Shown: positions 2,030 to 47,873, counted from the first letter of the stretch. The stretch: DNA of 64,000 nucleotides from Loktanella sp. (GCA_017390475.1 JAFPBO010000055.1:4133-68132), one strand, 5' to 3'. Numbers and translations: made by a program. The notes: generated by a model from the letters alone, not told the origin.

Positions 2030-2701
2030 TCAACCCACTCCGGCTTCAGACCCCAGATGCTGCAGGGCCCCAACAATCATTGCGGCCTCGCGCGCAAGCT
2101 GCGCCCGCGTGGGCGTGCGGCCGATCACCACCATGCGCCAATAGAGCGAAGCCGGAATGAGATCGAGCGCAAGTTCCCTGTCTATGCTCTCCTTCAGCTC
2201 TCCCCGCGCAATGGCTCGGTCCAGAATCGCAGTTCCCTGCGCGCGTCTGGCTTCAGCGACCTGGGTGTTGAGCCGGCGCATGTCGGGCGAGCGTGCCGCC
2301 TCGGCGTGAAGATCCGGCAGGATTCGGCGGATCAGGGGATGACGCAGGACCGTGCGCAGCCGAGTGAGAAACGCCAGAACATCGGCTTCGAGATCGCCGT
2401 GATCCGCAGCGACCGCAACCTTCAGACCGAGGGCCGTAACGGCCGCCGCAGCAAAGGCCTGGCGCGAGGCGAAGCGGCGGTAGATCGCCGCCTTGCCGGC
2501 ACCGGCCCTCGCGGCAACCCTCTCAAGGCTGATGGCAGCGAAACCGTGTTCGGCCCAATCCTGAAAAAATGCCCGGAAAAGCGCCTCTGTCAGTTCCGCG
2601 CGGGGCACGGCAGCTCCGCTAGGCTTGCGGCGCTTTTTTTCGTCGGAACGGTTGCGTTTCAACGAAGGCCCTCCCATATGGATGATACGATAGCGTTCCA
2701 A
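2030..2701 (-). CDS. TetR/AcrR family transcriptional regulator
   Basis: 223 aa. The N-terminal HTH region FRAFFQDWAEHGFAAISLERVAARAGAGKAAIYRRFASRQAF is a canonical TetR signature. The same-size antisense ORF 2024..2707 has no motif. Confidence 0.85.
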   Translation of the reverse strand: MERYRIIHMGGPSLKRNRSDEKKRRKPSGAAVPRAELTEALFRAFFQDWAEHGFAAISLERVAARAGAGKAAIYRRFASRQAFAAAAVTALGLKVAVAADHGDLEADVLAFLTRLRTVLRHPLIRRILPDLHAEAARSPDMRRLNTQVAEARRAQGTAILDRAIARGELKESIDRELALDLIPASLYWRMVVIGRTPTRAQLAREAAMIVGALQHLGSEAGVG

Positions 2702-2718
2702 TCATAAGAGGTTTTGCC

Positions 2719-3159
2719 ATGGCTGACAAGTTCGACACCTTCTCCGACCTCCTGCGCGCGGCACTAGGCTCGCATTTAGCCCCCGCAGACGATATGCTGG
2801 ACCTGTTCACCGACGACATCGTCTTTGAGTTTCCGTTTGCCCCCGAGGGACTCCCCACCCGGTTTGAAGGGCGCGACGCGCTCACCGGCCATCTGGCGAA
2901 GCTCGGCCCGTTGCTTTCGCTTGGCGAGATGGAGCTGCACGCCGTTTATCCATCCGGAGACACCGTGATTGCCGAGTTTTCCTGCAAGGGCCGAGGCGTG
3001 CAAACGGGTTTACCCTATGACCAGAACTATGTCTCGGTCATCACACTGCGCGACGAACGCATCGCGCGGTACCGCGACTACTGGAATCCGCTGGTCGTGC
3101 TTGCGGCACTGGGCGGCGCAGATGCCGCAAACGCTGCTTTCAGCGCGGCAGGATCATGA
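2719..3159 (+). CDS. SnoaL-like / NTF2-fold protein
   Basis: 146 aa. The size and pattern (DDIVFEFPF, GRDAL, the C-terminal IARYRDYWNP) are typical of SnoaL/ketosteroid-isomerase-like proteins. Divergent from the TetR gene. Confidence 0.65.
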   Translation: MADKFDTFSDLLRAALGSHLAPADDMLDLFTDDIVFEFPFAPEGLPTRFEGRDALTGHLAKLGPLLSLGEMELHAVYPSGDTVIAEFSCKGRGVQTGLPYDQNYVSVITLRDERIARYRDYWNPLVVLAALGGADAANAAFSAAGS

Positions 3160-3986
3160 TTGGTCCTGTCCTCGTCATCGGGGGCACCGGCAAGACCGGC
3201 CGCCGTGTCGCCGCCCGCCTTGCGGCAGAGGGCATTGACGCCCGCATTGGCACGCGTTCCCCTCAAGAGCCGCAGCACCGGCGCTTTGACTGGGCCGACA
3301 TGTCTTGTGCCAAAGCCTTCGATGGCTGCACCGCCGCATGGCTGGTCGCACCGACTGACCGCACGGATCATCTGGCGGTGATGCAGCCAATGCTCGAACA
3401 GGCCATGGCGCGCGGCGTGCGGCGCTTCGTGCTCCTCAGTTCCTCGCTTTTTGAGGCGGGTGGCCCGTTGATGGGCGAGGTCCACGCTTGGCTGGCCGGA
3501 CATGCCGAAGAATGGGCGGTGCTGCGGCCTTCGTGGTTCATGCAAAATTTCACCGAAGGGGCGCATGGCGACACCATTCGCAAGGAGGACGCGATCTACA
3601 GCGCCACGGGCAGCGGGCGGGTCGGATTCATCGACGCGGACGACATAGCTGCCGCCGCCGTGGCGGCCCTGACGACCGATACAGCGATGAATGCGGACGC
3701 CATTCTCACTGGACCCGAGGCGCTGAGCTACGATGACATTGTGACGATCGTCTCGGAATCGACTGGTAGGACGGTGCGCCATGTCGCATTGGAACCTGAG
3801 GCATTGTCGGCTCGCCTGAACGCTCTTGGCATGCCTCCGGGATATGTCGAAGCGCTTGTCCGGCTCGATCTGGTCATCAGCGAAGGTGCCGAGGATCGGA
3901 CGACGACCGGCGTGATGGACCTGACCGGAAGGCAACCCCGGTCTTTCCAGGCTTTCGTCACTGAGTGCAAAGTGACGTGGGACTGA
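3156..3986 (+). CDS. NmrA-like NAD(P)H-binding protein
   Basis: 276 aa. N-terminal Rossmann motif VLVIGGTGKTGRRVAARL. 4-nt overlap with the upstream SnoaL-like gene. Confidence 0.8.
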   Translation: MIGPVLVIGGTGKTGRRVAARLAAEGIDARIGTRSPQEPQHRRFDWADMSCAKAFDGCTAAWLVAPTDRTDHLAVMQPMLEQAMARGVRRFVLLSSSLFEAGGPLMGEVHAWLAGHAEEWAVLRPSWFMQNFTEGAHGDTIRKEDAIYSATGSGRVGFIDADDIAAAAVAALTTDTAMNADAILTGPEALSYDDIVTIVSESTGRTVRHVALEPEALSARLNALGMPPGYVEALVRLDLVISEGAEDRTTTGVMDLTGRQPRSFQAFVTECKVTWD

Positions 3987-9005: not shown

Positions 9006-9127
9006 ACAATGCTGCTATGACCAATGTGCGGGACAAACTGCTGTTCAAATCTATCGTCCGGGAACAAAAACTCGACTAGGTGGATACTTGACCAAGCGCG
9101 GCGAGTAATGTGGATCATTCCGATGAA

Positions 9128-9502
9128 TCACTCTGCCGCGGCGAGGTGGTAGGGCTTCACGAGACAGTCTGCCGGTATGTGCCACTCACTGCTCAGCCTG
9201 TGGATCATGTCCACCGTCAAGGCGCGTTTTCGGTTCAGCACTTCGGATGCGCGGGGGCGCGATCCGAACAATGCCGCCAGATCGGCTTGGGTGCGCCCTC
9301 TCGTGTCCATGTGCACCTTGAGCAGGTCAATCGGCTCCATAGCCTCGACGTGAAAGTGCTTGCTCTCGTAGTGCTCAACGAGATCCATGAGGATATCAAG
9401 CTCATCGCCTTCGGGCGTGCCGGGTTCTTTGCCCCAGAGGGAGTCGATGCGGGCAAGAGCGGCGGTCAGATCGTCGTTCGTGCGGATCGGTCGGATTTCC
9501 AT
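9128..9502 (-). CDS. higA: HigA-family antitoxin (HTH, XRE-type)
   Basis: 124 aa. IRTNDDLTAALARIDSLWGKEPGTPEGDELDILMDLVEHYE is followed by the HTH GRTQADLAALFGSRPRASEVLNRKRALTVDMIHRL. This is the typical long HigA architecture. Confidence 0.8.
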   Translation of the reverse strand: MEIRPIRTNDDLTAALARIDSLWGKEPGTPEGDELDILMDLVEHYESKHFHVEAMEPIDLLKVHMDTRGRTQADLAALFGSRPRASEVLNRKRALTVDMIHRLSSEWHIPADCLVKPYHLAAAE

Positions 9503-9515
9503 GATGTCGCTCCTT

Positions 9516-9804
9516 TCAGAATTTCGAGACGGTCGAAGTATCTATGCGGACGTACTCGGCGTGCGTGCCGATAAACTTTAAGAAGGCCACCTCACGGCGG
9601 AAATCGAAGGCGCAGATCACGCGGAAGTCGCCCCCGGACACGCTCGGCGTTCAGCACCTTGGCCTTGGAAAAGGCTGCCTGAACATCACCGGTCGGAGTC
9701 TACACGGCTGCGGTCGCCACCCGTAGCCAGTGTTCAAGAGGGGCGCGGGCAGCAGGGTTCTTTGCCCCAAACTCTACAATCGTTCGCTTGGCAATGATCC
9801 GCAT
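9516..9804 (-). pseudogene. higB: HigB-family toxin pseudogene
   Basis: My own minus-strand translation reads MRIIAKRTIVEFGAKNPAARAPLEHWLRVATAAV*. After an in-frame TAG and at least one frameshift it continues ...GDFRVICAFDFRREVAFLKFIGTHAEYVRID.... This matches the HigB pattern (MR.I.K..L.EF....P.A...L..W ... F.GTHAEYD.ID). No intact ORF of 60 aa or more is present. Confidence 0.6.
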
Positions 9805-10488
9805 AACGTCCCTATGTTCCCAAATTGCGAAGGCAGGGAGCGGGGAAGGCTGTCAAGGACATGTTCCCATATTGGGATCACAGGCAAAACCCGGACGTTT
9901 TTGTTCCTGACCGAATCCACCGTTCTAGGCAGACAGGTTCTGGCAAGGGGTTTCGATCTGGTAGAAGTCGTTCATGACCTGTGCGGCGAATGCCGAGATC
10001 GAGCCCTCTTTACCAATCTTCTGTACCGCAGCTAACAGCGCGCGATGATAGGTCAAACCCGTCCTCAACGTTGGTTTTTTGGACCGAATGGTCCATGGCG
10101 ATAGTGTTCATCCGCACGTTTTTGAACGGAGTGCTCTGAACAGTTTCAAGAGGTCTGATCCACCCGAAAGCCAGCGGCAACTGCCCTTCAGAAGGAGCAT
10201 AGCGGAGGTTGTTAGTGCTGCGCAAAGCTAGCCTACGGCTCGGAAGAATTTTCATCAAAATGTACTTTTTGATGAAACTTGTCCGGCGAAATGCACGTGA
10301 CTGTAACTGCAGATCAGCGATCGAAAAGAGGAATGTTGTCATTGTGTAGCTCGGAAACGGGCAATCGTGCCGAAGGTGGTAAATTTCGCACCTATCGCCT
10401 GGCTCTTCCGGTCACATCGGTCTGGCAATCAATTGTCTTGCTTTGGCAAGCAATAAGAATCCTGAAAATTAACCAACTGGAGTGTAAT

Positions 10489-35834: not shown

Positions 35835-36934
35835 CCCTGAAATTCCTCGATTACGAAGTCGGAATAGAAAAAGGCTTTGTCCTTGGCTTTCAGACGGATT
35901 TCATTCTCGGTCAGGGTTGTCATCTGATCGGTAAAGGCAGGCGGGACACGCCGCTGTGCCATCATATTCCAATAGACAAGACGCGCCTTTGGATTTGCAG
36001 CGCTCAGGATCTGCCCGTAAACTTGGGCAAAGATGTTCGGGGACATGTATTCAAAAATATCCGACAGGTTAAACCCATCGGCCTTGTCGCCGTCATCAAT
36101 AAACGCCTCAAGCGCGCCTTGGCGAATGTCCAGCCGATCCAGTCGGTCGCGGATCGTCGTGTAGTGTTCGGCGCGCCAAGGCATCGGCACAGCATCGCCA
36201 TGTTTACCTTTCATGATCCAGTACAGATAGGGATTTTGCGACGGGTCACAATCGACCGCCGCATGCTTGATCCTGCGCGCGACATGTTGCGCTACAGAGC
36301 CTTGAACGTGATCAAAGAATGCCTTGTCTCGGCCCATCCGGCCCATCATGAAACGCGAAAAGAACAGATTGAGCAAAAGCCGCCAGCGCCATGTGTTGAA
36401 TCGCTGATCTAGAAATTTCTGTCGTTCGGCCTTGGGACGTGGAACGAAAATGTCGTCGATAGTCTTCCTCGAATGAACTAAAGGCAGTAGCTTTGTTCTG
36501 AAAATGCGGAAATAGCGTTCAAATTTACCAACCCCACCGGCGCCATAAGCAATGACATCATCACGTTGGTCTTGCCAGAATAGGCGCGTTTCCGAGTCGA
36601 TCTCGGCGATGGCCCGGTCCAGCAGCGCGCCACGCCGGGTGCTGGGGCGTGAACCCATCAATTCAAGGAATTCCGGTTGTGACAACGCGCGGTAAGCACC
36701 GATGCGCAGGCGCAGGCAGGCGATCTGGGCAGGCGACAGATCCACCACAACCACGCGCGCTGGGTCCAGTGTCAGCATCGCCAAAGCATTGTCGCCAGCC
36801 GAACAGATTGAAACAAGCGTTTTGTCTGGATCCTGAGGCAGTGCGGCACACAGAACATCCGCATCTTCCCACAATTGCGCATAACGGATGTGGTCGAAAT
36901 TTGCTTTTCCTGCGATTTCAGAGCTTTGCGTCAT
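35831..36934 (-). CDS. DUF3419 / BtaA-like (SAM:lipid 3-amino-3-carboxypropyl transferase family) protein
   Basis: IRYAQLWEDADVLCAAL...TLVSICSAGDNALAMLTLDPARVVVVDLSPAQIACLRLRIGAY matches my recollection of the BtaA/DUF3419 N-terminal signature. No btaB-like methyltransferase is nearby. Confidence 0.65.
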   Translation of the reverse strand: MTQSSEIAGKANFDHIRYAQLWEDADVLCAALPQDPDKTLVSICSAGDNALAMLTLDPARVVVVDLSPAQIACLRLRIGAYRALSQPEFLELMGSRPSTRRGALLDRAIAEIDSETRLFWQDQRDDVIAYGAGGVGKFERYFRIFRTKLLPLVHSRKTIDDIFVPRPKAERQKFLDQRFNTWRWRLLLNLFFSRFMMGRMGRDKAFFDHVQGSVAQHVARRIKHAAVDCDPSQNPYLYWIMKGKHGDAVPMPWRAEHYTTIRDRLDRLDIRQGALEAFIDDGDKADGFNLSDIFEYMSPNIFAQVYGQILSAANPKARLVYWNMMAQRRVPPAFTDQMTTLTENEIRLKAKDKAFFYSDFVIEEFQG

Positions 36935-39324
36935 GTCTTCGTCACCAGCCCTGTCGCCCCGTTCACAAGCAATGTTTCACCATCCTTGACCCACTGCGTC
37001 GCCCCCTTAAGCCCGACAACACATGGAATGCCCAATTCACGCGCGACGATGGCAGAATGGGACAAAAGCGACCCGCGCTCCACGACAATGGCGCTTGCGT
37101 TGGAAAACACAGCGATCCAGCCGGGGTCGGTGTGTCTGGCGACAAGAATATCGCCCGGGGACAGGCTTTCGGTACGTGGGTCGCGGATCACGCGGGCTTT
37201 GGCGGTTACTTGTCCGGCAGAACATCCGGTGGCGGTGCGCGTATCGCCGGTTTCGGTTGTTTGCATCACCGCATGAATCGTCGTGGCAGGCAGGATCGCA
37301 GGGCCGCGCACCTCAATCCGTTCAGGCGGGTCGTTGCGGGTGGCCGATGCTGCGTCTTCTGTCTGGCGCAGCTCGATCAGCCCGCGCAGGTTCGAGGACA
37401 ATCCGAACCCTTCAATCGCGCCCATGACTTCTGCGACGGTCAGATGAAATATATCGCGGGGTTGATCAATCAGGTCACGTGCAGCGAATTCACGGCCCAT
37501 GGACAGGAAAACCTGCCGCGCCCGACCAAACAGTCGTGTGCGTTCAAATCGTAGGTTTTCGCGGTCGCGCACACGCGCCTTGGCCCATCCGACAATCCAT
37601 TTCGCCAGCCGGGCCTTGACGGGTTTGCCCCGAAAAATCTTTGCCCAATCCGGTTCCGGTGCCACGATATGATCTGCCGGGGGGCGTTTGGCGCTTGCGG
37701 CAATGGCTGCGAAAAGCTGGGATGCATCCTCGGTCAAAGGAATGGATTCCAGCTTCAGTTCTTCAGTACAGCGGTCGCCGAATTTGGCAAGGTAGCTGGC
37801 CAATTCATCTTTCAGCGCCGGGTGGGTCCCGATCTGATCGGCGGGAATATCATGCTCTGCCGCGATACGACCCATTCTCGCGATCCGCTGTGCAGGTTCG
37901 GCCGAGACGATATCACCCTGCCCAATCATGACGTCATTGTGCAACATCAGTCCATCATCGCCCAGCCAATTTTCCAGCAGGTTCCGTGACGCGCCAAACG
38001 CGATCATGCACAGAAAATCATTGATCAAAGGAGCATCCCAACGGTCCAGCAAGGTGCTTTCGATGCGGCGATACTCGCTGGCAAGCTGTGTCAGGTTGGC
38101 GGTTTGTAGGTGAAGGTCGCTGTCCAGTGCTGCATTCAGGCGTGAATAGAAATTGCGCCGGGTTCGGGGGAGACGCATCGCCTCGAAAACCAACCGCGCG
38201 GCGACACCGGCGAGTTTGCCGTATTCCGTCACCTTTGCGAATCCCTTGGCAGGTGGCGGGCCGATATTGTCTGTAATCTCAGCGGGCATGGGCGTGTCGA
38301 CGCCCATCATGGTCTCCATATAGGCGCGGTTCAGCGAAAAACCGGGCAAATGCGCAAGCGCGCGGTACCAGTTGACGAGATTGTAGTAAACATGCCCATC
38401 AACGCGCCCCAGCATGTTGCCAAAAATTGCCGCATTTTCGGAGATGGTGGCTTCGCTCACGCCCAATAGCCGCACAAAGGATTGGTAGACGCGGTCGTAG
38501 ACATGCACCGCGAAACTGTAGGTCAGCGGCGATACCATCCCCGGGTAACTTTCGACAATATTGGAGTTATCGAATATAGTCAGTGCGTTGTCGGGCATTG
38601 CTATCGGTTTCAGTGCGGTCGTGATCGGGCGGGTTTGCAGGATATGCAGCCCATCCGCGTCAATCGCCCATTCGATATCTTGCGGACTACCAAATGCTGC
38701 TTCAGCCTTGCGCGCTATCTCGGCGATGCTGTTGATTTCGGCCTCCGACAGAATGGGGTCTGGCGGCGCGGTGACCGTGTCGGCGACCACCCAGCTTTGG
38801 CCGTCAACCTCGCCACTGACCAAGGCATCGCCAAGGCCCTCGGTCGCGGAGATGACCACGCAATCGCGTCGTCCGCTGACCGGGTCAGCGCTGAACGCGA
38901 TACCGGATACACGGGCGTCGATCATCTGCTGAACAACGATGGCCGGTGCTGCCGCACCACCCCCCGATTTGACCGCACGATAGGTGGTGACCGTCTCACC
39001 AAACCCCGAGGCCCAGACCTTCGCAGCGGCATCAACGACATTGCCCGCTTTGACATTCAGAAAGGTATCGAACTGGCCCGCGTGACTATGTTCCTGCCCG
39101 TCCTCGGCATGGCCAGAGGATCGCACCGCATAGGGGCCGGGGCCGATGGTTTTCAGCGCTTTGGTGACGGCAGTTTTCAGCCCACGCAGCGGTTTGCCAT
39201 CGGTAAATGCATCTGCCGGGATGACAAAGGATGCAGGCGGATTGAACCCGCATTTCGCAAGCCGGGCAAGGGACGCGCCTTTGCCACCTGCCTGCGCGGG
39301 ATCGGTGTTGTTGAACAAGATCAT
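36931..39324 (-). CDS. PEP-utilising-enzyme family dikinase with rifampin-phosphotransferase-like domain order
   Basis: N-terminal ATP-grasp (PPDK_N-like: GGKGASLARLAK...AVRSSGHAEDG). The swivel phospho-His domain sits at the extreme C-terminus (ILVARHTDPGWIAVFSNASAIVVERGSLLSHSAIVARELGIPCVVG). There is no C-terminal PEP/pyruvate TIM barrel. The start was moved to ATG 39324 (ATGA overlap). Confidence 0.8.
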   Translation of the reverse strand: MILFNNTDPAQAGGKGASLARLAKCGFNPPASFVIPADAFTDGKPLRGLKTAVTKALKTIGPGPYAVRSSGHAEDGQEHSHAGQFDTFLNVKAGNVVDAAAKVWASGFGETVTTYRAVKSGGGAAAPAIVVQQMIDARVSGIAFSADPVSGRRDCVVISATEGLGDALVSGEVDGQSWVVADTVTAPPDPILSEAEINSIAEIARKAEAAFGSPQDIEWAIDADGLHILQTRPITTALKPIAMPDNALTIFDNSNIVESYPGMVSPLTYSFAVHVYDRVYQSFVRLLGVSEATISENAAIFGNMLGRVDGHVYYNLVNWYRALAHLPGFSLNRAYMETMMGVDTPMPAEITDNIGPPPAKGFAKVTEYGKLAGVAARLVFEAMRLPRTRRNFYSRLNAALDSDLHLQTANLTQLASEYRRIESTLLDRWDAPLINDFLCMIAFGASRNLLENWLGDDGLMLHNDVMIGQGDIVSAEPAQRIARMGRIAAEHDIPADQIGTHPALKDELASYLAKFGDRCTEELKLESIPLTEDASQLFAAIAASAKRPPADHIVAPEPDWAKIFRGKPVKARLAKWIVGWAKARVRDRENLRFERTRLFGRARQVFLSMGREFAARDLIDQPRDIFHLTVAEVMGAIEGFGLSSNLRGLIELRQTEDAASATRNDPPERIEVRGPAILPATTIHAVMQTTETGDTRTATGCSAGQVTAKARVIRDPRTESLSPGDILVARHTDPGWIAVFSNASAIVVERGSLLSHSAIVARELGIPCVVGLKGATQWVKDGETLLVNGATGLVTKT

Positions 39325-40232
39325 GGCAGCCCTCCAAGGACGAGCGGCAGAAAGCCTGCAGTTGCATAACAGCCAAACACCCACAATCCTGCCAGCGTGT
39401 CCATCTGCTTTTCAGCTTTGACGGTCGGGGCGGCGGCGTAACGGCGTGCCGCGAAGCTGCAGACCAGCAAGCCACTAAGGCTGATCAAGCAAAAAGCAAT
39501 CGCAAAACCTGCAGCGATGCCGACGCCGATCACCAATCCGGCGGATATACCTACAAAGACAAGCCAGATGTTGGCGGCGCGTTTTGGTCCCCAGAGGCCG
39601 GAATAGGTATCCACCCCGACCCGTTCATTTTCGACAGCCCAAAGCTTGCGGCCTATTTCTAGCACACACCCGTTCGAGAATGACAAGGCAATAAACAGCC
39701 AGAGCGCAGGTGCGGCTGATCCATGCGGCAACCATTCGATCCCGGTCAGCATCAGGTCGATCAGCGGCATGATTGCCATATGCGACAATAGATAAAGCAC
39801 CGGGCGTGCCTTGAGCCATACCGGGACGCCGAATTCGAACGTCATCGCCCCAAGCCACGCCCATGTCAGCAATAGCAGCCAGATTAGGCCCGCACCGTGC
39901 AGCAACGCTAGGACGATGCCCAAAGGTATGGTCACGACCCCAAGCAGGACAATCAGGCGCAGCGTCACCAAACCACGCGGAATTGGCCGTTCGGGGCGGT
40001 ACTTTGCATCGTCTTCCCCGTCTTTCACCTCGTCTGCAACACGCAGTTGGAAGAACAGAAAAAACACCAGCAGAAAGCCAACGATATATGCCGATAGGTC
40101 CGGCAGGGAACGGTCGGACAGAACGGCAGATATTGTGATAGAAGCCGCAGAAAAACACGCTAGAAGCGGCACGGTTTTCACCAAGGGGAACCGTTCAGCC
40201 TGATAAATCCACAAACGCTGTGCGAGGGTCAT
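39321..40232 (-). CDS. UbiA-superfamily prenyltransferase
   Basis: 303 aa with about eight TM helices. First Asp-rich motif RVADEVKDGEDDAKYRPERPIPRGLV. The second loop EIGRKLWAVENERVGVDTYSGLWG resembles the UbiA second motif region. Confidence 0.7.
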   Translation of the reverse strand: MTLAQRLWIYQAERFPLVKTVPLLACFSAASITISAVLSDRSLPDLSAYIVGFLLVFFLFFQLRVADEVKDGEDDAKYRPERPIPRGLVTLRLIVLLGVVTIPLGIVLALLHGAGLIWLLLLTWAWLGAMTFEFGVPVWLKARPVLYLLSHMAIMPLIDLMLTGIEWLPHGSAAPALWLFIALSFSNGCVLEIGRKLWAVENERVGVDTYSGLWGPKRAANIWLVFVGISAGLVIGVGIAAGFAIAFCLISLSGLLVCSFAARRYAAAPTVKAEKQMDTLAGLWVFGCYATAGFLPLVLGGLP

Positions 40233-41494
40233 CTGAACCGTGCCAGGTTTTCATGGGCGCGGGTGAAATCCCCCGCAGCGATTGCAGCAACAATAGATAT
40301 TTCACCGCAAAGACACAGGGCTGCCGTTACCTCGGCCAGCGCACCACCTTTGCCCGGCCCTTTGAGGCCCAGAATGTTTAGTCCGGCACACTGGCTGGCA
40401 AGGCCAGTGCCACCGCCCACCGATCCGACAAGGATGTTGGGCATGGTCACGGAACAGAACAGATCGTCGCCGCGCGCCTCCATCCGGGTGAAACCTACGG
40501 CACTTTCGGCAACGCACGCCGCGTCCTGACCTGTGGCAATGTAAAGTGCGGCAAGCCCGTTGGCATAATGCGCCTGCGCGCCCATCTGTCCCGAAAGTTT
40601 GGCACCCAGATCGGCAATGCGCCCGTAGGCCAGCATGTCTTGCGCCGTTGTCCCAAGGGTGTTTGCGATGATCGCAGCGGGCAACACGACAGAAGCACTG
40701 ACCTTGCGCCCGCGCCCCGTCATCAGACCAAGGGCAGAGGCTTTTTTATCGCCGGAAAAGTTTCCCTCGATATACCAACGGTTGATCGGCACAGTGCAAT
40801 CTGCAGCGATCTTTTCGCATAATGCATGGGTCGCAATCGTGACCATATTCTGCCCCGCCGCGTCGCCGGTGGTATAGCGGCAGATCAGGAACACGACGTC
40901 ATTGTCGATGACCGGTTCAACCGAGGTCAGCTTGCCATATTGCGTGGTGCTTTCGGCGACTTTGCGTAAGTCACTGATATTGTTGGCGACCCATTCAACA
41001 AACAGGCCAGAGTTCAAGATATTGTCAAAGGTGAAAGCAGGCGTTCGGATTACGCCTTCGTATAAAACTGCGGTGCTGATGCCGCCTGCTTTGGTCGCGG
41101 CATATGCACCGCGCCCGTATGACGCCACCAGCGCCGCCTCGGTCGTAGCAAGGGGAATGTGGTAATCGCCAGCGGCATTTATGCCGTTCAGACGCAGTGG
41201 ACCAATGACGCCTACAGGGACTTTGACGGTTCCGATAAAGTTTTCGATGTTGCCAGAATAATCTGCGGCAGCGGCAAGGGTTGCAGGATCCGCAATCTGG
41301 TCGCGATCAGCAGCCGAGGCTGGCCCGATGAGTCGATCCCAATATCGCAACACACTTTGTTCAGAGGCAATGCGTACTGGACGCAACGTGCGAAAAGGTG
41401 CGTTACGGGCCGCCATCTGCAAACGCAATTTTTCTGGCGTGAATTTTTCACGCAGCCTCGTCAGCATCGCTTGCACATGTGCTGGAATGGTCAT
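40229..41494 (-). CDS. hydroxymethylglutaryl-CoA reductase (class I-like) homologue
   Basis: ENFIGTVKVPVGVIGPL, LATTEAALVASYGRGA, TGDAAGQNM, GNFSGDKKAS, VGSVGGGTGL and the C-terminal GDFTRAHENL correspond to the conserved HMGR blocks, including the catalytic Glu, Asp, Lys and His regions. Confidence 0.85.
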   Translation of the reverse strand: MTIPAHVQAMLTRLREKFTPEKLRLQMAARNAPFRTLRPVRIASEQSVLRYWDRLIGPASAADRDQIADPATLAAAADYSGNIENFIGTVKVPVGVIGPLRLNGINAAGDYHIPLATTEAALVASYGRGAYAATKAGGISTAVLYEGVIRTPAFTFDNILNSGLFVEWVANNISDLRKVAESTTQYGKLTSVEPVIDNDVVFLICRYTTGDAAGQNMVTIATHALCEKIAADCTVPINRWYIEGNFSGDKKASALGLMTGRGRKVSASVVLPAAIIANTLGTTAQDMLAYGRIADLGAKLSGQMGAQAHYANGLAALYIATGQDAACVAESAVGFTRMEARGDDLFCSVTMPNILVGSVGGGTGLASQCAGLNILGLKGPGKGGALAEVTAALCLCGEISIVAAIAAGDFTRAHENLARFR

Positions 41495-41496
41495 GG

Positions 41497-41769
41497 TTAT
41501 TTCCCCGCAGATTGGTGCAATGCCTTGCGGTTCATATACACCTGTTCGAGCGCATCACGCTTAGCTAGGATGGGACATGTTTCACCGAAAACCTTCATAC
41601 GGAACACGTCACCAAAGCGGTCGACCTGATCAAAATTGGTGCCGCAAGGGTCCAGCCCAAAACTGAGGGTTTTCCCAATGAACGGTATCGTGCGCGGCCC
41701 CGGGAGATGCCCAAGGTCTGGATGAGCAAACCGGGCCTCGGCTGCCGTCATGGTTTCTAGGACCGTCAC
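41497..41769 (-). CDS. 90-aa ORF resembling only the N-terminus of a cytochrome P450
   Basis: LPGPRTIPFIGKTLSFGLDP...FDQVDRFGDVFRMKVFGETCPILAKRDALEQVY fits the P450 Pro-rich hinge and first beta-sheet region. There is no I-helix or heme-Cys region. The stop lies 2 nt before the HMGR start. RBS aagga precedes GTG 41769. Confidence 0.4.
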   Translation of the reverse strand: MTVLETMTAAEARFAHPDLGHLPGPRTIPFIGKTLSFGLDPCGTNFDQVDRFGDVFRMKVFGETCPILAKRDALEQVYMNRKALHQSAGK

Positions 41770-42252: not shown

Positions 42253-43674
42253 TTACCCATCGATCAGCGATTCTGGGTTAGCCAGCAAGTGGTTCAAGTC
42301 TGACATGGCTTTTAGGAAGAGGACATCGGATGCGCATGTATTTATGGCCAGTCGCACTGCATTTGGGGCATTGCAATTCGGCAACGCAAATTCATCGGCG
42401 GGCTTGATCAGAATATCACGTTTTTCGCATGCCATGGCAAAGCCGGATGCACGCCATCCCTGCGGCATATTCAAATATACGAACGGCGCATCTTCTCGCC
42501 ATCGTAAATCCCAAGCCCCAAGAGCATTGACCGCCAGCCGCGCTCGCCTTGCGGTCTCTGCTATAACGCGATCACGAATTTCGAAGGCTGCGCCGCTCGT
42601 AATCAATTCGTGGCACAAATCTAGGATTGGCTGCGCCACCCCATAAAACGAGCTTTGCGCAACTTGCCGCAGTTCTTTCTCACGCCCAACGGGGGCAATG
42701 GCGTATCCAAACCGCAACGCCCCGCTGACTGACTTTGTCAGCGACGAAACAAGGTAGCTCTGGTCGGGCAGTATCGAGCGATAGCTGGGAATGTCGCTTG
42801 AGGCCGTGGTATGACAATCATCTTCGATGATTGTGATGTCCAATTGACGCGCGATTTGCGCTAACTCTTGTTTACGCGCGAGGCTGGTACGGATCGTCGT
42901 CGGGCTATGCACTTCGGCCGCGGTCAGCAGAATGCGACCACCGTGATCGCGGCAGGCCTGCCTGAAAAATTCCGGCAGAATACCTTCATCATCCATCGGC
43001 AGACCAACAGTTTGTGCGCGAAGCAAGCGTGCAGCATGACGCGTACCGGGGTAGCCCAGTTCCTCTGTCATGATGATTGGGTGCTGACCGCTCAGTTCGG
43101 CCTGTAGCGCCAGGATGCAGCAGTTTTGTGCCCCATTCCCCAAAACAATACTCTCAGGCTCAACCCCGCCTGACCGCGCTTGGTCCACCCAAGACGCGAC
43201 AGCAGCGCGTGCTTCGAAGTCAGTTTCCGCCGTCGGGTAGTTAATATGACGACGCCGGTGGCTTTCACCCTGCTTGATCAGGGCAGCGTCTATTATCTGA
43301 CCCTGCCCGACATCAGGCACACGGCTACTGCGAAAATCTGCAACCGCATCGACCGGCAAGTTCACCAAAGGGGTCACGCGCTCGGTTTTTGCCGCACGTC
43401 CCGCTGCAACGAAGGTGCCGCGACCCACCTCTGCCCGAAGACGCCCTTCTTCGGTCAGCAAGGTATAGGCCCGCGCGACAGTGCCCGGCGTTACCTTCAC
43501 GCGGAAGGCAAGATCACGCACGGGGGGTAGTTTCATTCCAGGTACAAGATGTCCTGCTGCGATGCCGTCACGAATGGCTTGAGCCAGCGCTTTGTACTTG
43601 GATTTCCCTGAAATCGGCAGGTGAGGTTGCCAAATTGTACTGGTCACAATCATTTTGTATCCCTCATATGCCAT
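42253..43674 (-). CDS. MocR-type regulator (GntR wHTH fused to a PLP aminotransferase-fold domain)
   Basis: The N-terminal wHTH KYKALAQAIRDGIAAGHLVPGMKLPPVRDLAFRVKVTPGTVARAYTLLTEEG is followed by an about 350-aa class I/II aminotransferase fold with SLTKSVSGALRFGY (PLP Lys). Confidence 0.85.
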   Translation of the reverse strand: MAYEGYKMIVTSTIWQPHLPISGKSKYKALAQAIRDGIAAGHLVPGMKLPPVRDLAFRVKVTPGTVARAYTLLTEEGRLRAEVGRGTFVAAGRAAKTERVTPLVNLPVDAVADFRSSRVPDVGQGQIIDAALIKQGESHRRRHINYPTAETDFEARAAVASWVDQARSGGVEPESIVLGNGAQNCCILALQAELSGQHPIIMTEELGYPGTRHAARLLRAQTVGLPMDDEGILPEFFRQACRDHGGRILLTAAEVHSPTTIRTSLARKQELAQIARQLDITIIEDDCHTTASSDIPSYRSILPDQSYLVSSLTKSVSGALRFGYAIAPVGREKELRQVAQSSFYGVAQPILDLCHELITSGAAFEIRDRVIAETARRARLAVNALGAWDLRWREDAPFVYLNMPQGWRASGFAMACEKRDILIKPADEFALPNCNAPNAVRLAINTCASDVLFLKAMSDLNHLLANPESLIDG

Positions 43675-43738
43675 CTATTGTATTCCTACATTGTGCTTTA
43701 TTCAATATTGTGTCAATACAATGCAAAGAGATACCTCC

Positions 43739-43966
43739 ATGTCACCATCGCTTCACGCAGCCCAGATTGCGCTTCTTAACGACCAGGCGCGCCTTCCGTC
43801 AGTGGCATATGTCTTGATCACCATGGCTGTCATGGTAACAAAATGGGATCGGTATCGGCGTACGCGTAAAGCTTTGAGTGGCCTCGAGCCGCATCTTTTG
43901 GAGGATGTCGGTCTCACCCGCGAAGCCGCATACAACGAAGCGAGAAAGCCTTTCTGGAAAGACTAA
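43739..43966 (+). CDS. DUF1127 small protein
   Basis: TKWDRYRRTRKALSGLEPHLLEDVGLTREAA matches the DUF1127 core (W..R.R.R..L..L.D..L.D.GL.R). Alternative ATG at 43721. Divergent from the MocR gene. Confidence 0.7.
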   Translation: MSPSLHAAQIALLNDQARLPSVAYVLITMAVMVTKWDRYRRTRKALSGLEPHLLEDVGLTREAAYNEARKPFWKD

Positions 43967-44124: not shown

Positions 44125-46128
44125 CTAACCCGCCCGGCCCGCAGCCCAGCTTTTGCGCCCCATCGCAGCGATCCGCGCTATTTGTTCATCAGGCACCTGT
44201 ACCACCGTAGCAGGCGACGGCAGAACGTCATCGTGGAACAAATAAAGCCGGGCAGCGAATTCCTCAAACAAAAGCGAGCCTTCTCCAAAACGCTCGCCAG
44301 CACCGCTGGTCGAGACAATCACACCATGGCCCCAATCCTGCCCGCTGTCATTGTTCGGGTTGAAAAAGTAAACACGCGTATGGCCATCCTGGTCCAGCCC
44401 GGCCCGGATCAGCGTGATCGCATGCCAGCCGACAAAGGTGCCGGTGGCGTCAGTCACCGCGATCCCGGCGGGCTGCGGATGGATCACGGGTTGATTGCCA
44501 TTGTGCAGCGGATGATAGGACGCGTGGAAGGCGCGCAGGAAATCTTCGTACTCCTTCAGGGCACCGGTGGCCACATCGACCGCGATGTGAAAGGCGCGCC
44601 CGACCCACCAGCCGTGCAGTTCGGGGTTGATCCAGCGGTGCGGGTCTTCGGACCTGCCGATACAGCGGCGGCCCATCTCGGCATAGGCGCGATCAAGATG
44701 CGGCACCAACAGCACCGATACAGGATCGGCATCCAGCAACGCGGATGTCGCAAGGCCGGGCGGCAAAGTGGCCGTATCCAGCGGCTCACCTTCGAAATGC
44801 AGCACCAGCCGGTCACCACGTGTGATCTGCGCGATCAGCCAGAGGAGGTAATCAGGATCGTTCAGCGCCCACATCGACAGGGCACGTGCGGATTGGCAGG
44901 TTGGGTTATTGCCCTGACCTACACCCAAAGGCTGGCCTAACAACATCAGCACCCCGGCGACCAGATGTGTTTTTGCAGGCAGCAACGTGCCGCAAGACGC
45001 GCCCAAGGCGCTGGTGCAATCTTCGCTCAGCGGTGTTTCCAGCAATCGCCACAATGATGGCGCGATGGGTGGGGAGTAAAGGATGCCACGTTCCAGCATC
45101 AGCGCCAGACCGTAAACCGCCTGTGCGGTGCCGGGCTGGATAGCGGCATCGACCATGCCGTAGACGAGCGATTCATAACAGCGCAGCGCATCCAGACCGG
45201 TGGTGGATAAACCCAATGCATGGGGCAACATCCGCGCGTGATCAGCATCCAGCGTCCAGCGCAGAAATGCCGCATGATAATCCGACACGAGCCCGGTATC
45301 ATGCATGGCACGCGCAAGCGCATAGGCTTCATCCTGAATGGCCCGTTCATCCGCGCGCGACAGGCGGTTGATATAAACAGCAATGCCCGGATCATCCCGG
45401 CACAGGGTTGCCGGCCCAAAAAGGGCGCTGATCAACCTGTCTGCTCCAAGATGGGCATCGGCGGCATTCGTGCTACCACTCTGCAAGGCCTGTGCGATCT
45501 GCACAACCATTCCCTTCACATGATCAACCTGCAACGGGCGCTGCGCCATGATCCGCCAGACTTCATCGATCAGGTGATCCAGAATGCCATCTGGCCCCAG
45601 CTCCTGCATCAAATAGCGCATCAGTCGGTCAACCGCTGGTGTCAGCGGTCCCTGTGCATTGCGCTGTGCTTCATCCGCAGCCTGACCCAGAAGCCGATCC
45701 AGATTGAGAGCAAGAACCTGCGTCAGAAATTGTTTCGCCTGCTCAGCCAGCAGTCCGGGATTGGCGTGATCGCCGGTAGCAGCCACCAGAAAGCGCAGCA
45801 GACTCATCGCCTCCAGTGTGATCGTGGCAGGTGCGGCATGGGTCAACGTCTGTTTGACAAGACTTGGCTGCAGATTGGTGGGGCAGGCCCAGTCGCTGCC
45901 GGAAAATAGGCCAGCCTGATCCATCACGCCTATGCGCTGGCGCAATGCAGGCAAACCCTCCTCATGTTCCAGCACCCGGCGGGCCACTTCGAGCACGCGC
46001 AATGCGTGATCGGACTTACCGATCCGCGATGCACCATCCAAATGGATAATCTGCCGGTCCAGCCGGTCCAGAAGTGCTTGCAGGTTGGCTGTCGCGCTCT
46101 TTGACGTTGTTTTTTCGGCTTCGACCAC
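44125..46128 (-). CDS. hypothetical 667-aa protein with a C-terminal calpain/papain-like cysteine peptidase signature
   Basis: GQ(405)GNNPTC(411)QSARALSMW has Gln six residues before Cys. VGWH(569)AITLI and VYFFN(590)PNNDSGQDWG follow. The N-terminal about 380 aa are helical and unassigned. GTG start. Confidence 0.55.
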   Translation of the reverse strand: MVEAEKTTSKSATANLQALLDRLDRQIIHLDGASRIGKSDHALRVLEVARRVLEHEEGLPALRQRIGVMDQAGLFSGSDWACPTNLQPSLVKQTLTHAAPATITLEAMSLLRFLVAATGDHANPGLLAEQAKQFLTQVLALNLDRLLGQAADEAQRNAQGPLTPAVDRLMRYLMQELGPDGILDHLIDEVWRIMAQRPLQVDHVKGMVVQIAQALQSGSTNAADAHLGADRLISALFGPATLCRDDPGIAVYINRLSRADERAIQDEAYALARAMHDTGLVSDYHAAFLRWTLDADHARMLPHALGLSTTGLDALRCYESLVYGMVDAAIQPGTAQAVYGLALMLERGILYSPPIAPSLWRLLETPLSEDCTSALGASCGTLLPAKTHLVAGVLMLLGQPLGVGQGNNPTCQSARALSMWALNDPDYLLWLIAQITRGDRLVLHFEGEPLDTATLPPGLATSALLDADPVSVLLVPHLDRAYAEMGRRCIGRSEDPHRWINPELHGWWVGRAFHIAVDVATGALKEYEDFLRAFHASYHPLHNGNQPVIHPQPAGIAVTDATGTFVGWHAITLIRAGLDQDGHTRVYFFNPNNDSGQDWGHGVIVSTSGAGERFGEGSLLFEEFAARLYLFHDDVLPSPATVVQVPDEQIARIAAMGRKSWAAGRAG

Positions 46129-46270
46129 TTTGTCGCCTTTTTTGTCATGGCCGGAGCACGGTGAATGCAGCCAGCCGTTAGTGCAAGTACGCGACTGACC
46201 CCAAGGTGTCAGCGGCGAAGATATGCCACACCTCGGGGATCACGAGAACCACTGCCGTTCGGAATGCCGA

Positions 46271-47497
46271 TCAGATGTAGAAATCAAGCTCTTCCTGTGC
46301 TTTGAGTAGATCACGCATTTCAACCGCATCTTCGCCAAAGAAATAGACAAGGCCCCAATGCGTCCCGAACGCCGTCCGCTTGGTCACCTTTTGGGCATGC
46401 GGCGGATTAAGCTCGTGAAAGTCAAAATACGGATGGTTTTCAGTCTCTGCCGGGATCTCAAGATTGCTGACGACACGACGACGCGGATAGACGCCAAAGC
46501 AACCTGCATGACCTTTTGCATCCACGACTTCTGTCGGGAAGAATGCCTCAAGCTCTTCTTGCGTTGTCTTGGGATCGAAGACCATAATCATCGCCTGATA
46601 CGCGTTGAAACCATAGGCCCGTTCCAGTAGTTCAAAAACGTTGAATCCTGGCGGACGATAGGCAACTTCACCGAAATACATTGTGCCATCCGAGGTAACG
46701 AAATACTCGGGGTGAATGAACCCGAAATCAATTTCAAACACCTCGATCAGTTTTTCGATTTCCTGTGTGATGCGACCGCGCCATTTTTCCAGTTCAGGTG
46801 TGGCGGGGACGAAAACGGAATAACCCAACGTGACATATTCCGAAATATTCAAAAATTGAATTTTACCATCCTTGATCCATGCTTCAACGGCAAATTCCCA
46901 TCCATCCAGGTGGCTTTCCAAAAGCGCTGGAAATTCATCGTCCGAAATTGACGCAACATCATCGGCCGTGCGGATCACCCTGTGTCCAAGGCAGCCGGCC
47001 TTGTCAAAGGCTTTGAAATGGATCGGGTCATTGGGGTCACCATCCAGCTTCAGCAGCGTCTGGTTCACGCGCCGCAAAAAACGGGTCACATCGGCCTGAT
47101 CCATCGCCTCTTCAAAAATACCCACGCGAATGCCGCCCAGTTGTGCGCGGCGTTTCATCAGTGATTTATCGCGAAACAGCATAGATTGCCCGAGCAGACG
47201 GGCATTCTTCAACAGCACTGAATTCACAGCGCCGGCCCATTCGACAGTTTCTTCAAACAACGGAACTGCGACATCCACCCCCATCTTTTCGAGCGTGGTG
47301 GCCAGTTCCATCGACCGGTCGTTGATCCGTTCAAAGTCCCACGACACAAACGGGATATCATGCTCTACCGCATGGGCCTCTGCCCAGGCAGGAGCGACGA
47401 TCACATACCGCCGGTCAAATTTTTCCAGCGCATCAATGCAGCGCAGGCTCCAGCCAAATATGGCGATGTATCCTTTATCCAGATTTTTCTCGGTCAT
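46271..47497 (-). CDS. ATP-grasp fold ligase
   Basis: HFKAFDKAGCLGHRVI, LESHLDGWEFAVEAWIKDGKIQF and GFIHPEYFVTSDGTMYFGEVAYRPPG match the ATP-grasp central and C-domain pattern (E..N.RP.G-like). Strong RBS aaggagag before ATG 47497. Confidence 0.7.
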   Translation of the reverse strand: MTEKNLDKGYIAIFGWSLRCIDALEKFDRRYVIVAPAWAEAHAVEHDIPFVSWDFERINDRSMELATTLEKMGVDVAVPLFEETVEWAGAVNSVLLKNARLLGQSMLFRDKSLMKRRAQLGGIRVGIFEEAMDQADVTRFLRRVNQTLLKLDGDPNDPIHFKAFDKAGCLGHRVIRTADDVASISDDEFPALLESHLDGWEFAVEAWIKDGKIQFLNISEYVTLGYSVFVPATPELEKWRGRITQEIEKLIEVFEIDFGFIHPEYFVTSDGTMYFGEVAYRPPGFNVFELLERAYGFNAYQAMIMVFDPKTTQEELEAFFPTEVVDAKGHAGCFGVYPRRRVVSNLEIPAETENHPYFDFHELNPPHAQKVTKRTAFGTHWGLVYFFGEDAVEMRDLLKAQEELDFYI

Positions 47498-47873
47498 TAT
47501 CTCTCCTTATTTGCGTATCGGCCAACTGACTATATCTTTGGGCCAATAGTTTCAAGGAAAGTGGTTTTTTAACAGGTATTTTACAGCTAATCGTCTGTAA
47601 TTTATCCCTTATTCAGTTTCCTGAAAAATGTATGAATATCCGTCCATGTGTCATAGGGACGCAACGAAAGGCGGTATGTTATATCGGTCGGTAGCATCTC
47701 GCTGACGCTCTTTCGACGCCATGCATATCACCGCGGCTTTTTCCAAGTTCAGGATAGCTATGCGTCACAGAATGAGGCAGAGGCGGGTCAGATTCACAGC
47801 GATGCCTACTTAAAAATCGCATAACGAAAGGTTCTGCATTTCGTGTTTTTTGGCGGTTGGGGTGCGGCGACTT

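Follow-up and report, generated by a model that had tools for sequence, protein, structure and literature searches.

A conserved gene pair of an ATP-grasp ligase and a divergent papain-like cysteine protein, a candidate amide-bond make-and-break module of mainly salt-, alkali- and marine-adapted bacteria

The window analysed here is a stretch of DNA of 64,000 nucleotides from Loktanella sp. (GCA_017390475.1 JAFPBO010000055.1:4133-68132). Open reading frame (ORF) calling placed two neighbouring genes on its minus strand (Table 1). The upstream gene encodes a protein of 408 amino acids (aa) that looks like an ATP-grasp carboxylate-amine ligase, and the downstream gene encodes a protein of 667 aa, referred to below as the partner, in which an all-alpha N-terminal part is followed by a predicted, divergent papain-like cysteine domain. 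A first-pass annotation of the nucleotide sequence had described the pair as an ATP-grasp ligase beside a calpain- or papain-like cysteine peptidase homologue. The same-strand arrangement of the two genes 142 bp apart, their lengths, the residue numbers and the quoted motifs, which in the partner comprise GQGNNPTCQS, GWHAITL and FFNPNNDSGQDWG, were all correct on the sequence.

Table 1. Coordinates of the gene pair and of surrounding features in the window
Feature	Coordinates	Strand	Description
Putative ATP-grasp carboxylate-amine ligase gene	46271-47497	-	L-amino-acid-ligase/PurK-like; 408 aa, ATG start; includes FGEVAYRPPG
Ligase codon Lys162	47012-47014	-	
Ligase codon Glu264	46706-46708	-	
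Ligase codon Glu277	46667-46669	-	
Ligase codon Arg281	46655-46657	-	
Partner gene	44125-46128	-	667 aa, GTG start
Partner N-terminal part	44929-46128	-	Residues 1 to ~400; all-alpha, solenoid-like, own invariant motifs
Partner C-terminal part	44125-44928	-	Residues ~401-667 and stop; predicted divergent papain-like Cys-His-Asn domain
Partner codon Gln405	44914-44916	-	Checked on sequence
Partner codon Cys411	44896-44898	-	Checked on sequence
Partner codon His569	44422-44424	-	Checked on sequence
Partner codon Asn590	44359-44361	-	Checked on sequence
Intergenic spacer, ligase/partner	46129-46270	-	142 bp
Region upstream of ligase gene	47498-47873	-	376 bp, AT-rich, GC 0.447; probable promoter region
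Sigma-70-like site	47654-47627		Weak; consensus scan
Sigma-70-like site	47525-47496		Weak; consensus scan
MocR-type regulator gene	42253-43674	-	GntR/aminotransferase fold; directly downstream of the pair
DUF1127 ORF	43655-43966	+	Small; divergent, beside the MocR-type regulator gene
Run of overlapping genes	36931-41769	-	PPDK_N/PEP-utilizers enzyme (817 aa), UbiA-family prenyltransferase (303 aa), HMG-CoA reductase (421 aa), 90-aa ORF without assignment

The ATP-grasp assignment made in the first-pass annotation was borne out by profile searches. The ligase matched NCBIfam PRK07206 (E 3e-7, residues 56-391), a family resembling the L-amino-acid ligases with which it is colinear throughout. 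It also matched Pfam ATP-grasp_4 (PF13535) at E 5.7e-5, with 23.2 bits just short of the cut-off of 27, and a precomputed PF13535 match is present in many of its orthologues. A profile built from 44 orthologues retrieved from the PDB the structures 4dim (an ATP-grasp protein, 4e-4), BL00235 (3vot, 8e-4), RizA (4wd3, 0.011) and PurK (3orq, 0.26). The residues H262-P-E264 and G-E277-V-A-Y-R281, invariant in the 44 orthologues, align on the HTE/HLE and EVGAR/EIAMR/EIAPR motifs of BL00235, RizA and PurK, and on this alignment the Mg-binding Glu264 and Glu277 and the catalytic Arg281 are intact. BL00235, RizA and PurK are the closest solved relatives, being of the same length class and sharing an Asn-less H-x-E ... 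G-E-x-[AG]-x-R Mg/ATP motif, but the likeness extends only over the central and C-terminal parts of the ATP-grasp core, with weak E-values, and substrate specificity is not inferable from it. The protein thus looks like a competent carboxylate-amine ligase of the L-amino-acid-ligase (LAL)/PurK type. Substrates in this branch of the ATP-grasp enzymes are free amino acids or small carboxylates, and to our knowledge LALs lie in antibiotic clusters without a papain-like partner. The RimK and tubulin tyrosine ligase (TTL) families gave no match to the ligase in Pfam, NCBIfam or PDB profile searches. For either protein of the pair, no match was obtained to the defence models of PADLOC at E <= 1 or to the phage library PHROGs.

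The partner had no match in Pfam, NCBIfam, PADLOC, PHROGs or the PDB sequences, and among 45 divergent members of its family no recurring Pfam family was found even at E <= 10. An exhaustive profile search of 1.84 billion representatives returned 299 proteins, all of them members of the partner family. As only its own family was recovered, there is no bridge to a known family and the partner is isolated in sequence space. The AlphaFold model of the partner (mean predicted local distance difference test score, pLDDT, of 82) falls into two parts. Up to about residue 400 it consists of helices only, mostly at pLDDT 80-97, and the residues invariant among close homologues in this part include W80, 228-239 and 345-361, which agrees with the earlier description of a helical N-terminal region lacking a known motif. 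A Foldseek search with the whole model gave generic ARM/HEAT-type matches at E > 0.1 and weak staphopain matches; because the helical region swamped this search, the C-terminal domain was modelled and searched alone. No signal peptide or pro-region was evident in the partner, consistent with a cytoplasmic protein.

The C-terminal domain is alpha/beta with papain topology in the AlphaFold models (pLDDT 71 when modelled alone). Cys411 stands directly before helix 412-423, at the helix N-terminus, with Gln405 six residues upstream; strand 565-578 carries His569, and Asn590 comes just after strand 584-589. When the domain was compared with the PDB by Foldseek, 18 of the 20 top matches were papain-fold cysteine peptidases, among them Amb a 11, cathepsins B and L, ananain, bromelain, staphopains and Pd_dinase. 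In the viral library BFVD the best match was a papain-like cysteine peptidase of Lausannevirus (E 7.4e-4), followed by a phage lysin-type protein (E 8.3e-4), a cathepsin L2 of Tupanvirus (E 0.037) and a papain-family protease of Marseillevirus (E 0.039). Gln405, Cys411, His569 and Asn590 were invariant in 50 close homologues, and 44 of 45 more distant relatives, with identities of 24-44 %, retain them; the site is surrounded by further invariant polar residues (D468, R575, R585, Q597, W599, E612 and E616). On these alignments the conservation of the catalytic residues is far beyond chance and decisive for the residues themselves. The partner shares with papain (family C1), the staphopains (C47) and giant-virus papain-like peptidases the Gln-x5-Cys at a helix N-terminus, the His on a strand and the Asn after the next strand. 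It differs from them in showing no profile similarity and a template modelling score (TM) of only about 0.2, in large insertions between Cys and His and in its unique N-terminal domain. Judged from the models, the C-terminal part appears to be a very divergent papain-like (clan-CA-type) Cys-His-Asn domain, as the first-pass annotation had proposed in broader terms, and the partner would represent a papain-like family that is itself new, as is its N-terminal domain.

Two more specific kinships suggested earlier, to calpains and to transglutaminase-type enzymes, were not recovered. On inspection the Gln-x5-Cys spacing, the distance of about 21 residues from His to Asn and the Asn-Pro motif resemble calpain. 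Nevertheless, no calpain chain was present among the top 50 listed fold matches in either the PDB or BFVD, no Peptidase_C2 match was found in the partner or the 45 divergent members, and no clan-CA (CL0125) family was among the best 25 of the 26 Pfam families matched by these members at E <= 10. Likewise, the partner-family profile retrieved no peptidase from the PDB sequences, and profile-profile comparison with papain-type sequences was insignificant. Transglutaminase similarity was absent both as a Transglut_core match in Pfam for the 45 members and among the listed fold matches. That the partner is a calpain-type regulatory protease lying beside an unrelated ligase by chance is therefore very improbable, the more so as adjacency, co-variation and gene overlap tie the two genes functionally.

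The pairing of the two genes in other genomes is kept across phyla. Of 90 loci, which come from at least six phyla, 85 had the two genes side by side, and in 78 of 84 loci the ligase gene was directly upstream of the partner gene on the same strand; in one further locus (L065) it was adjacent on the opposite strand, in divergent orientation. The spacer ranged from -22 to +209 bp among the 78 same-strand loci. Gene overlaps of 8 bp and 4 bp were seen in Halioglobus (L087) and Nannocystaceae (L089), respectively. In Hoyosella, Methylohalobius and Orrella the pair was kept between wholly different flanking genes, and when the search was started from the ligase, the partner followed in a Pirellulaceae metagenome-assembled genome (MAG) and in Halioglobus. 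A second subfamily, with a ligase 52-54 % and a partner 38 % identical to the window proteins, occurs in Bacillota, Myxococcota and Planctomycetota, and the pair was kept there in Halobacillus, Nannocystaceae and Rossellomorea. Pairwise distances of ligase and partner were correlated (r = 0.86, Mantel p <= 0.001), the partner evolving at 1.85 times the rate of the ligase. Plasmid carriage was limited to one match on a 1.8-Mb Halomonas replicon, and the module is essentially chromosomal. These patterns are best explained by an autonomous module that is inherited and transferred as a unit.

No third gene accompanies the pair. All-versus-all clustering and Pfam counts over 264 dereplicated neighbour clusters revealed no conserved further gene, and no carrier-protein family was among the most frequent neighbour families listed for these clusters. 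Neither a transporter nor a biosynthetic gene nor a precursor ORF was conserved beside the pair. Within the window, no conserved ORF was detected in the spacer by sequence and six-frame check, and no conserved small ORF or precursor peptide in the spacer or the region upstream of the ligase gene, as the first-pass annotation had also noted. Ribosomally synthesized and post-translationally modified peptide (RiPP) systems and graspetide-type ATP-grasp systems differ in this respect, having a precursor-peptide ORF beside the ligase. With neither a carrier nor a transporter nor a precursor ORF, the module must draw its substrates from common metabolites or act on a conserved component of the cell. 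The upstream region, which holds the Shine-Dalgarno-like AAGGAGAG and the two weak sigma-70-like sites of Table 1, is probably the promoter region of the pair. Neither a motif nor a sigma-54 site was conserved upstream across lineages, and no riboswitch, leader or other RNA element of Rfam matched at the pair at E <= 1.

At 90 % identity the partner family comprises 2,544 clusters and the ligase family 2,066. At least 596 pattern-matching stretches were confirmed in a one-genome-per-species collection; two patterns were used for these stretches, and the number of distinct species may be lower than 596, although it still lies in the hundreds. The named hosts were overwhelmingly halophilic, alkaliphilic or marine, a bias that is descriptive rather than statistical as the host sample was ranked by similarity to the query. 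They include Halomonas and its allies (Halomonas elongata among them), Salinivibrio, Marinobacter, Halorhodospira, Methylohalobius and Thiohalomonas, as well as soda-lake Rhodobacterales, Halobacillus and marine myxobacteria. Mycolicibacter sinensis, Nocardia wallacei and soil bacilli (Peribacillus, Neobacillus) are hosts outside this saline bias.

The analysis establishes the gene pair, the fold classes, the intact catalytic residues, the co-inheritance and the habitat bias; a shared substrate, the direction of the cysteine enzyme (hydrolase or transferase), a small-molecule product and the physiological role are inferred. The reading we prefer, to which we would give a probability of roughly 40 %, is that of a self-contained cytoplasmic module that makes and breaks (or transfers) an amide bond. 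The ligase would convert a carboxylate to an acyl-phosphate and join it to an amine, forming an amide (peptide-type) bond. In the partner, His569 would activate Cys411, with Asn590 orienting His569 and Gln405 providing the oxyanion hole. Attack of Cys411 on an amide bond of the kind made by the ligase would yield an acyl-thioester, which would then be hydrolysed or handed to another amine. The helical region of about 400 aa may serve as a binding platform for the substrate, the ligase or both. Together the two enzymes would regulate the amount of an amide-linked product that is formed from common metabolites of the cell and is useful mainly to salt-, alkali- and marine-adapted bacteria.

The components come from known superfamilies, and the logic of a ligase combined with a cysteine enzyme has precedents. 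The closest functional analogue appears to be glutathionylspermidine synthetase/amidase. In Escherichia coli this enzyme (Gss, GspSA) combines an ATP-dependent carboxylate-amine ligase with a papain-fold (CHAP) cysteine amidase acting on the same amide bond. The likeness lies in the coupling of a ligase to a papain-fold cysteine enzyme, by which a cell could set the level of one conjugate. In Gss the activities are fused and the small CHAP amidase is N-terminal, whereas the pair consists of two genes and its cysteine domain is C-terminal, behind the alpha-solenoid of about 400 aa. No sequence or fold match of the pair to Gss was obtained.

The same intact and strictly conserved catalytic set could also serve synthesis in one direction. 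Here the ligase would make or activate a building block, and the papain-like domain would act as a transacylase or transpeptidase, passing the acyl or peptidyl group from Cys411 to an amine to yield an oligomer or conjugate. Phytochelatin synthase acting after glutathione synthetase is a precedent for such a tandem. The invariant polar residues around the site suggest a defined acceptor pocket, and the genes are overlapping or translationally coupled in some genomes. CtaD/CtaG of closthioamide biosynthesis is the closest precedent for an ATP-grasp enzyme paired with a papain-like acyl-enzyme; there, and in BtrJ/BtrH of butirosin biosynthesis, an ATP-grasp enzyme works with a highly divergent papain-like enzyme that carries a Cys-His-Asp triad and forms an acyl-cysteine intermediate (PMC7183216). 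These known examples are thiotemplated on carrier proteins and require pyridoxal phosphate-dependent decarboxylases within larger clusters, whereas the pair has no carrier or other conserved neighbour. The present data fit transfer and hydrolysis alike, and we consider a purely one-way tandem unlikely, though worth keeping in mind.

The degree of ligase conservation bears on a further alternative, in which the substrate is a protein. In the logic of TTL with vasohibin, and of RimK, amino acids attached to a protein by an ATP-grasp enzyme are taken off again by a cysteine peptidase of papain- or transglutaminase-like type. In a bacterial counterpart, a conserved protein recognized by the alpha-solenoid would receive a single amino acid or several from the ligase, at its C-terminus or on a side chain, and the papain-like enzyme would remove them. 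It was found that the ligase is 74-86 % identical, at a fixed length of 408 aa, across at least four phyla, in which the partner is only 51-63 % identical. Conservation so far above that of a co-inherited partner suggests constraint over the whole surface, as in docking on a conserved macromolecule. An ARM/HEAT-like helical domain of about 400 aa is a typical protein-binding scaffold, and the lack of biosynthetic, transport or carrier genes beside the pair is consistent with tailing. On the other hand, the relatives detected for the ligase are small-molecule ligases (LALs, PurK and PRK07206), which places it in the LAL/PurK-like branch and not in the TTL or RimK branches. In addition, no candidate target gene is linked to the pair, and a patchy, habitat-biased distribution would be unusual for a modifier of a universal protein. 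Writing and erasing of protein tails, in a counterpart of TTL/vasohibin or of RimK-type tailing, seems to us rather doubtful.

A bolder proposal would be a carrier-free amide or peptide synthase independent of non-ribosomal peptide synthetases, with Cys411 capturing the acyl-phosphate and the papain-like domain running in reverse as a transpeptidase or polymerase on the helical scaffold, to give a new cytoplasmic oligo-amide or conjugate needed by salt- and alkali-adapted bacteria. Taken together with reversible amino-acid tailing of a conserved protein as its other form, this proposal is speculative and probably incorrect.

The habitat of the hosts raises the possibility of a compatible-solute synthase, that is, of a peptide-type osmolyte accumulating as external salinity rises. 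The strong bias towards Halomonas, Salinivibrio, Halorhodospira, Methylohalobius, soda-lake Rhodobacterales, Halobacillus and marine myxobacteria would be expected of such an enzyme, and a mechanosensitive channel of the MscK type adjoins the pair in Halomonadaceae. Expression in H. elongata DSM 2581 argues in the opposite direction. In this strain HELO_2051 (1224 bp) and HELO_2050 (2049 bp) were taken as the orthologues of ligase and partner from neighbourhood, gene length and GC, not from sequence. In published RNA-seq data (PMC9006882, Table S2), where a positive log2 fold change (log2FC) denotes a transcript more abundant at 0.17 M NaCl than at 2 M, the log2FC was +1.53 for HELO_2050 (2.9-fold higher at 0.17 M, adjusted P value padj 1.7e-144, baseMean 7064) and +0.73 for HELO_2051 (1.7-fold higher at 0.17 M, padj 3e-15, baseMean 961). 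As both values are positive, the inferred orthologues of the pair are not induced by high salt. The genes neighbouring HELO_2050 and HELO_2051 show similar positive values, and the apparent preference for low salt may be partly a global skew. The presence of the pair in the non-halophiles listed above speaks further against an osmolyte synthase, and a dedicated degrading enzyme in the same operon would be unusual for osmolyte synthesis. Mainly because of the RNA-seq data, this explanation was downgraded and is regarded as quite improbable.

Several observations weigh against the preferred make-and-break module. The high ligase identity and the large alpha-solenoid would suit a macromolecule, as partner or as substrate, no less well than a small molecule. 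At the cysteine domain, the Cys loop (residues 406-410) has pLDDT below 50, and the PDB fold matches were weak, at E 0.1-0.6 and TM ~0.2. The hhalign comparison with hand-entered sequences of papain, cathepsin L and cathepsin K gave an insignificant probability of 0.3 %, the sole local match aligning N-D-S-G-Q-D-W-G with papain N175-S-W-G-T-G-W-G. The pairing also has exceptions. In 5 of 84 loci the partner occurs with no ligase or other ATP-grasp gene within 6 kb (L014, L027, L029, L049 and L061, from Chromatocurvus halotolerans and four MAGs), and in Halorhodospira halochloris the pair is adjacent but convergent. In H. elongata, neither inferred orthologue is induced at 2 M NaCl and the partner mRNA is about four times the ligase mRNA per bp (PMC9006882). 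Finally, public records carry generic names only ('carboxylate-amine ligase / ATP-grasp domain-containing protein' and 'hypothetical protein'), and no characterization of the pair was found in the literature, including by locus tags and accessions.

The module is present in hundreds of species, including the industrial ectoine producer H. elongata, and its partner protein has neither a Pfam or NCBIfam model nor a name, nor any literature that we could find. Strict pairing in at least six phyla, a nearly frozen ligase and the saline and alkaline bias point to an unrecognized physiology in such bacteria. Identifying the product would bring to light either a cytoplasmic metabolite or a bacterial protein modification that is new, and would define a new papain-like family; reversible amino-acid tailing of a conserved protein, if it occurs, would be new for bacteria. 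As the system comprises just two genes and has a host amenable to genetics, the question can be put to a direct test.

The two genes differ in base composition in two distant hosts, with a GC of 0.509 for the ligase gene against 0.601 for the partner gene in the window, and of 0.607 for HELO_2051 against 0.666 for HELO_2050 in H. elongata. A signature of horizontal transfer was considered and rejected, as the low GC of the ligase gene lies mostly in second codon positions (GC2 0.36), whose composition explains most of it. The low value is attributed to a conserved amino-acid composition rich in Phe, Glu, Asp, Lys and Tyr, not to foreign origin or recent acquisition.

In the window, the pair is followed directly by the gene of a MocR-type regulator, beside which lies a divergent DUF1127 ORF; neither is kept beside the pair in other loci. 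Further along the same strand is the run of overlapping genes listed in Table 1, whose PPDK_N, UbiA and HMG-CoA reductase trio is unusual for an alphaproteobacterium and may form a small isoprenoid-related operon.

Among the neighbours in other genomes, deacetylase genes of the HDAC/AphA type lay no more than three genes away from the pair in 4 of 90 loci, belonging to three or four unrelated lineages (L020, L023, L070 at 2087-3349 and L089 at 9009-10061; Desulfurivibrionaceae, Desulfobulbaceae, H. elongata and Nannocystaceae). This recurrence of the HDAC type, in four clusters, is above a rough expectation but weak after multiple testing. In the Nannocystaceae MAG (L089, 3647-7004) the pair is preceded on the same strand by argC (TIGR01850, 338 bits against a cut-off of 234), an ArgA-like GNAT gene and a second GNAT gene, which may be a housekeeping adjacency or a hint of N-acetyl-glutamate/ornithine chemistry. 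In Halomonadaceae (18-22 loci; L070, 8115-12476) the pair adjoins a TlyA-like FtsJ/S4 methyltransferase gene and the gene of the MscK-type channel (1170 aa), an arrangement that is lineage-specific. Between mscK and the tlyA-like gene, H. elongata DSM 2581 carries HELO_2046-HELO_2047 (1290 and 2121 bp, GC 0.51-0.52; PMC9006882, supplementary tables). These two genes are absent from strain 153B (L070) and look like a strain-specific insertion beside the module.

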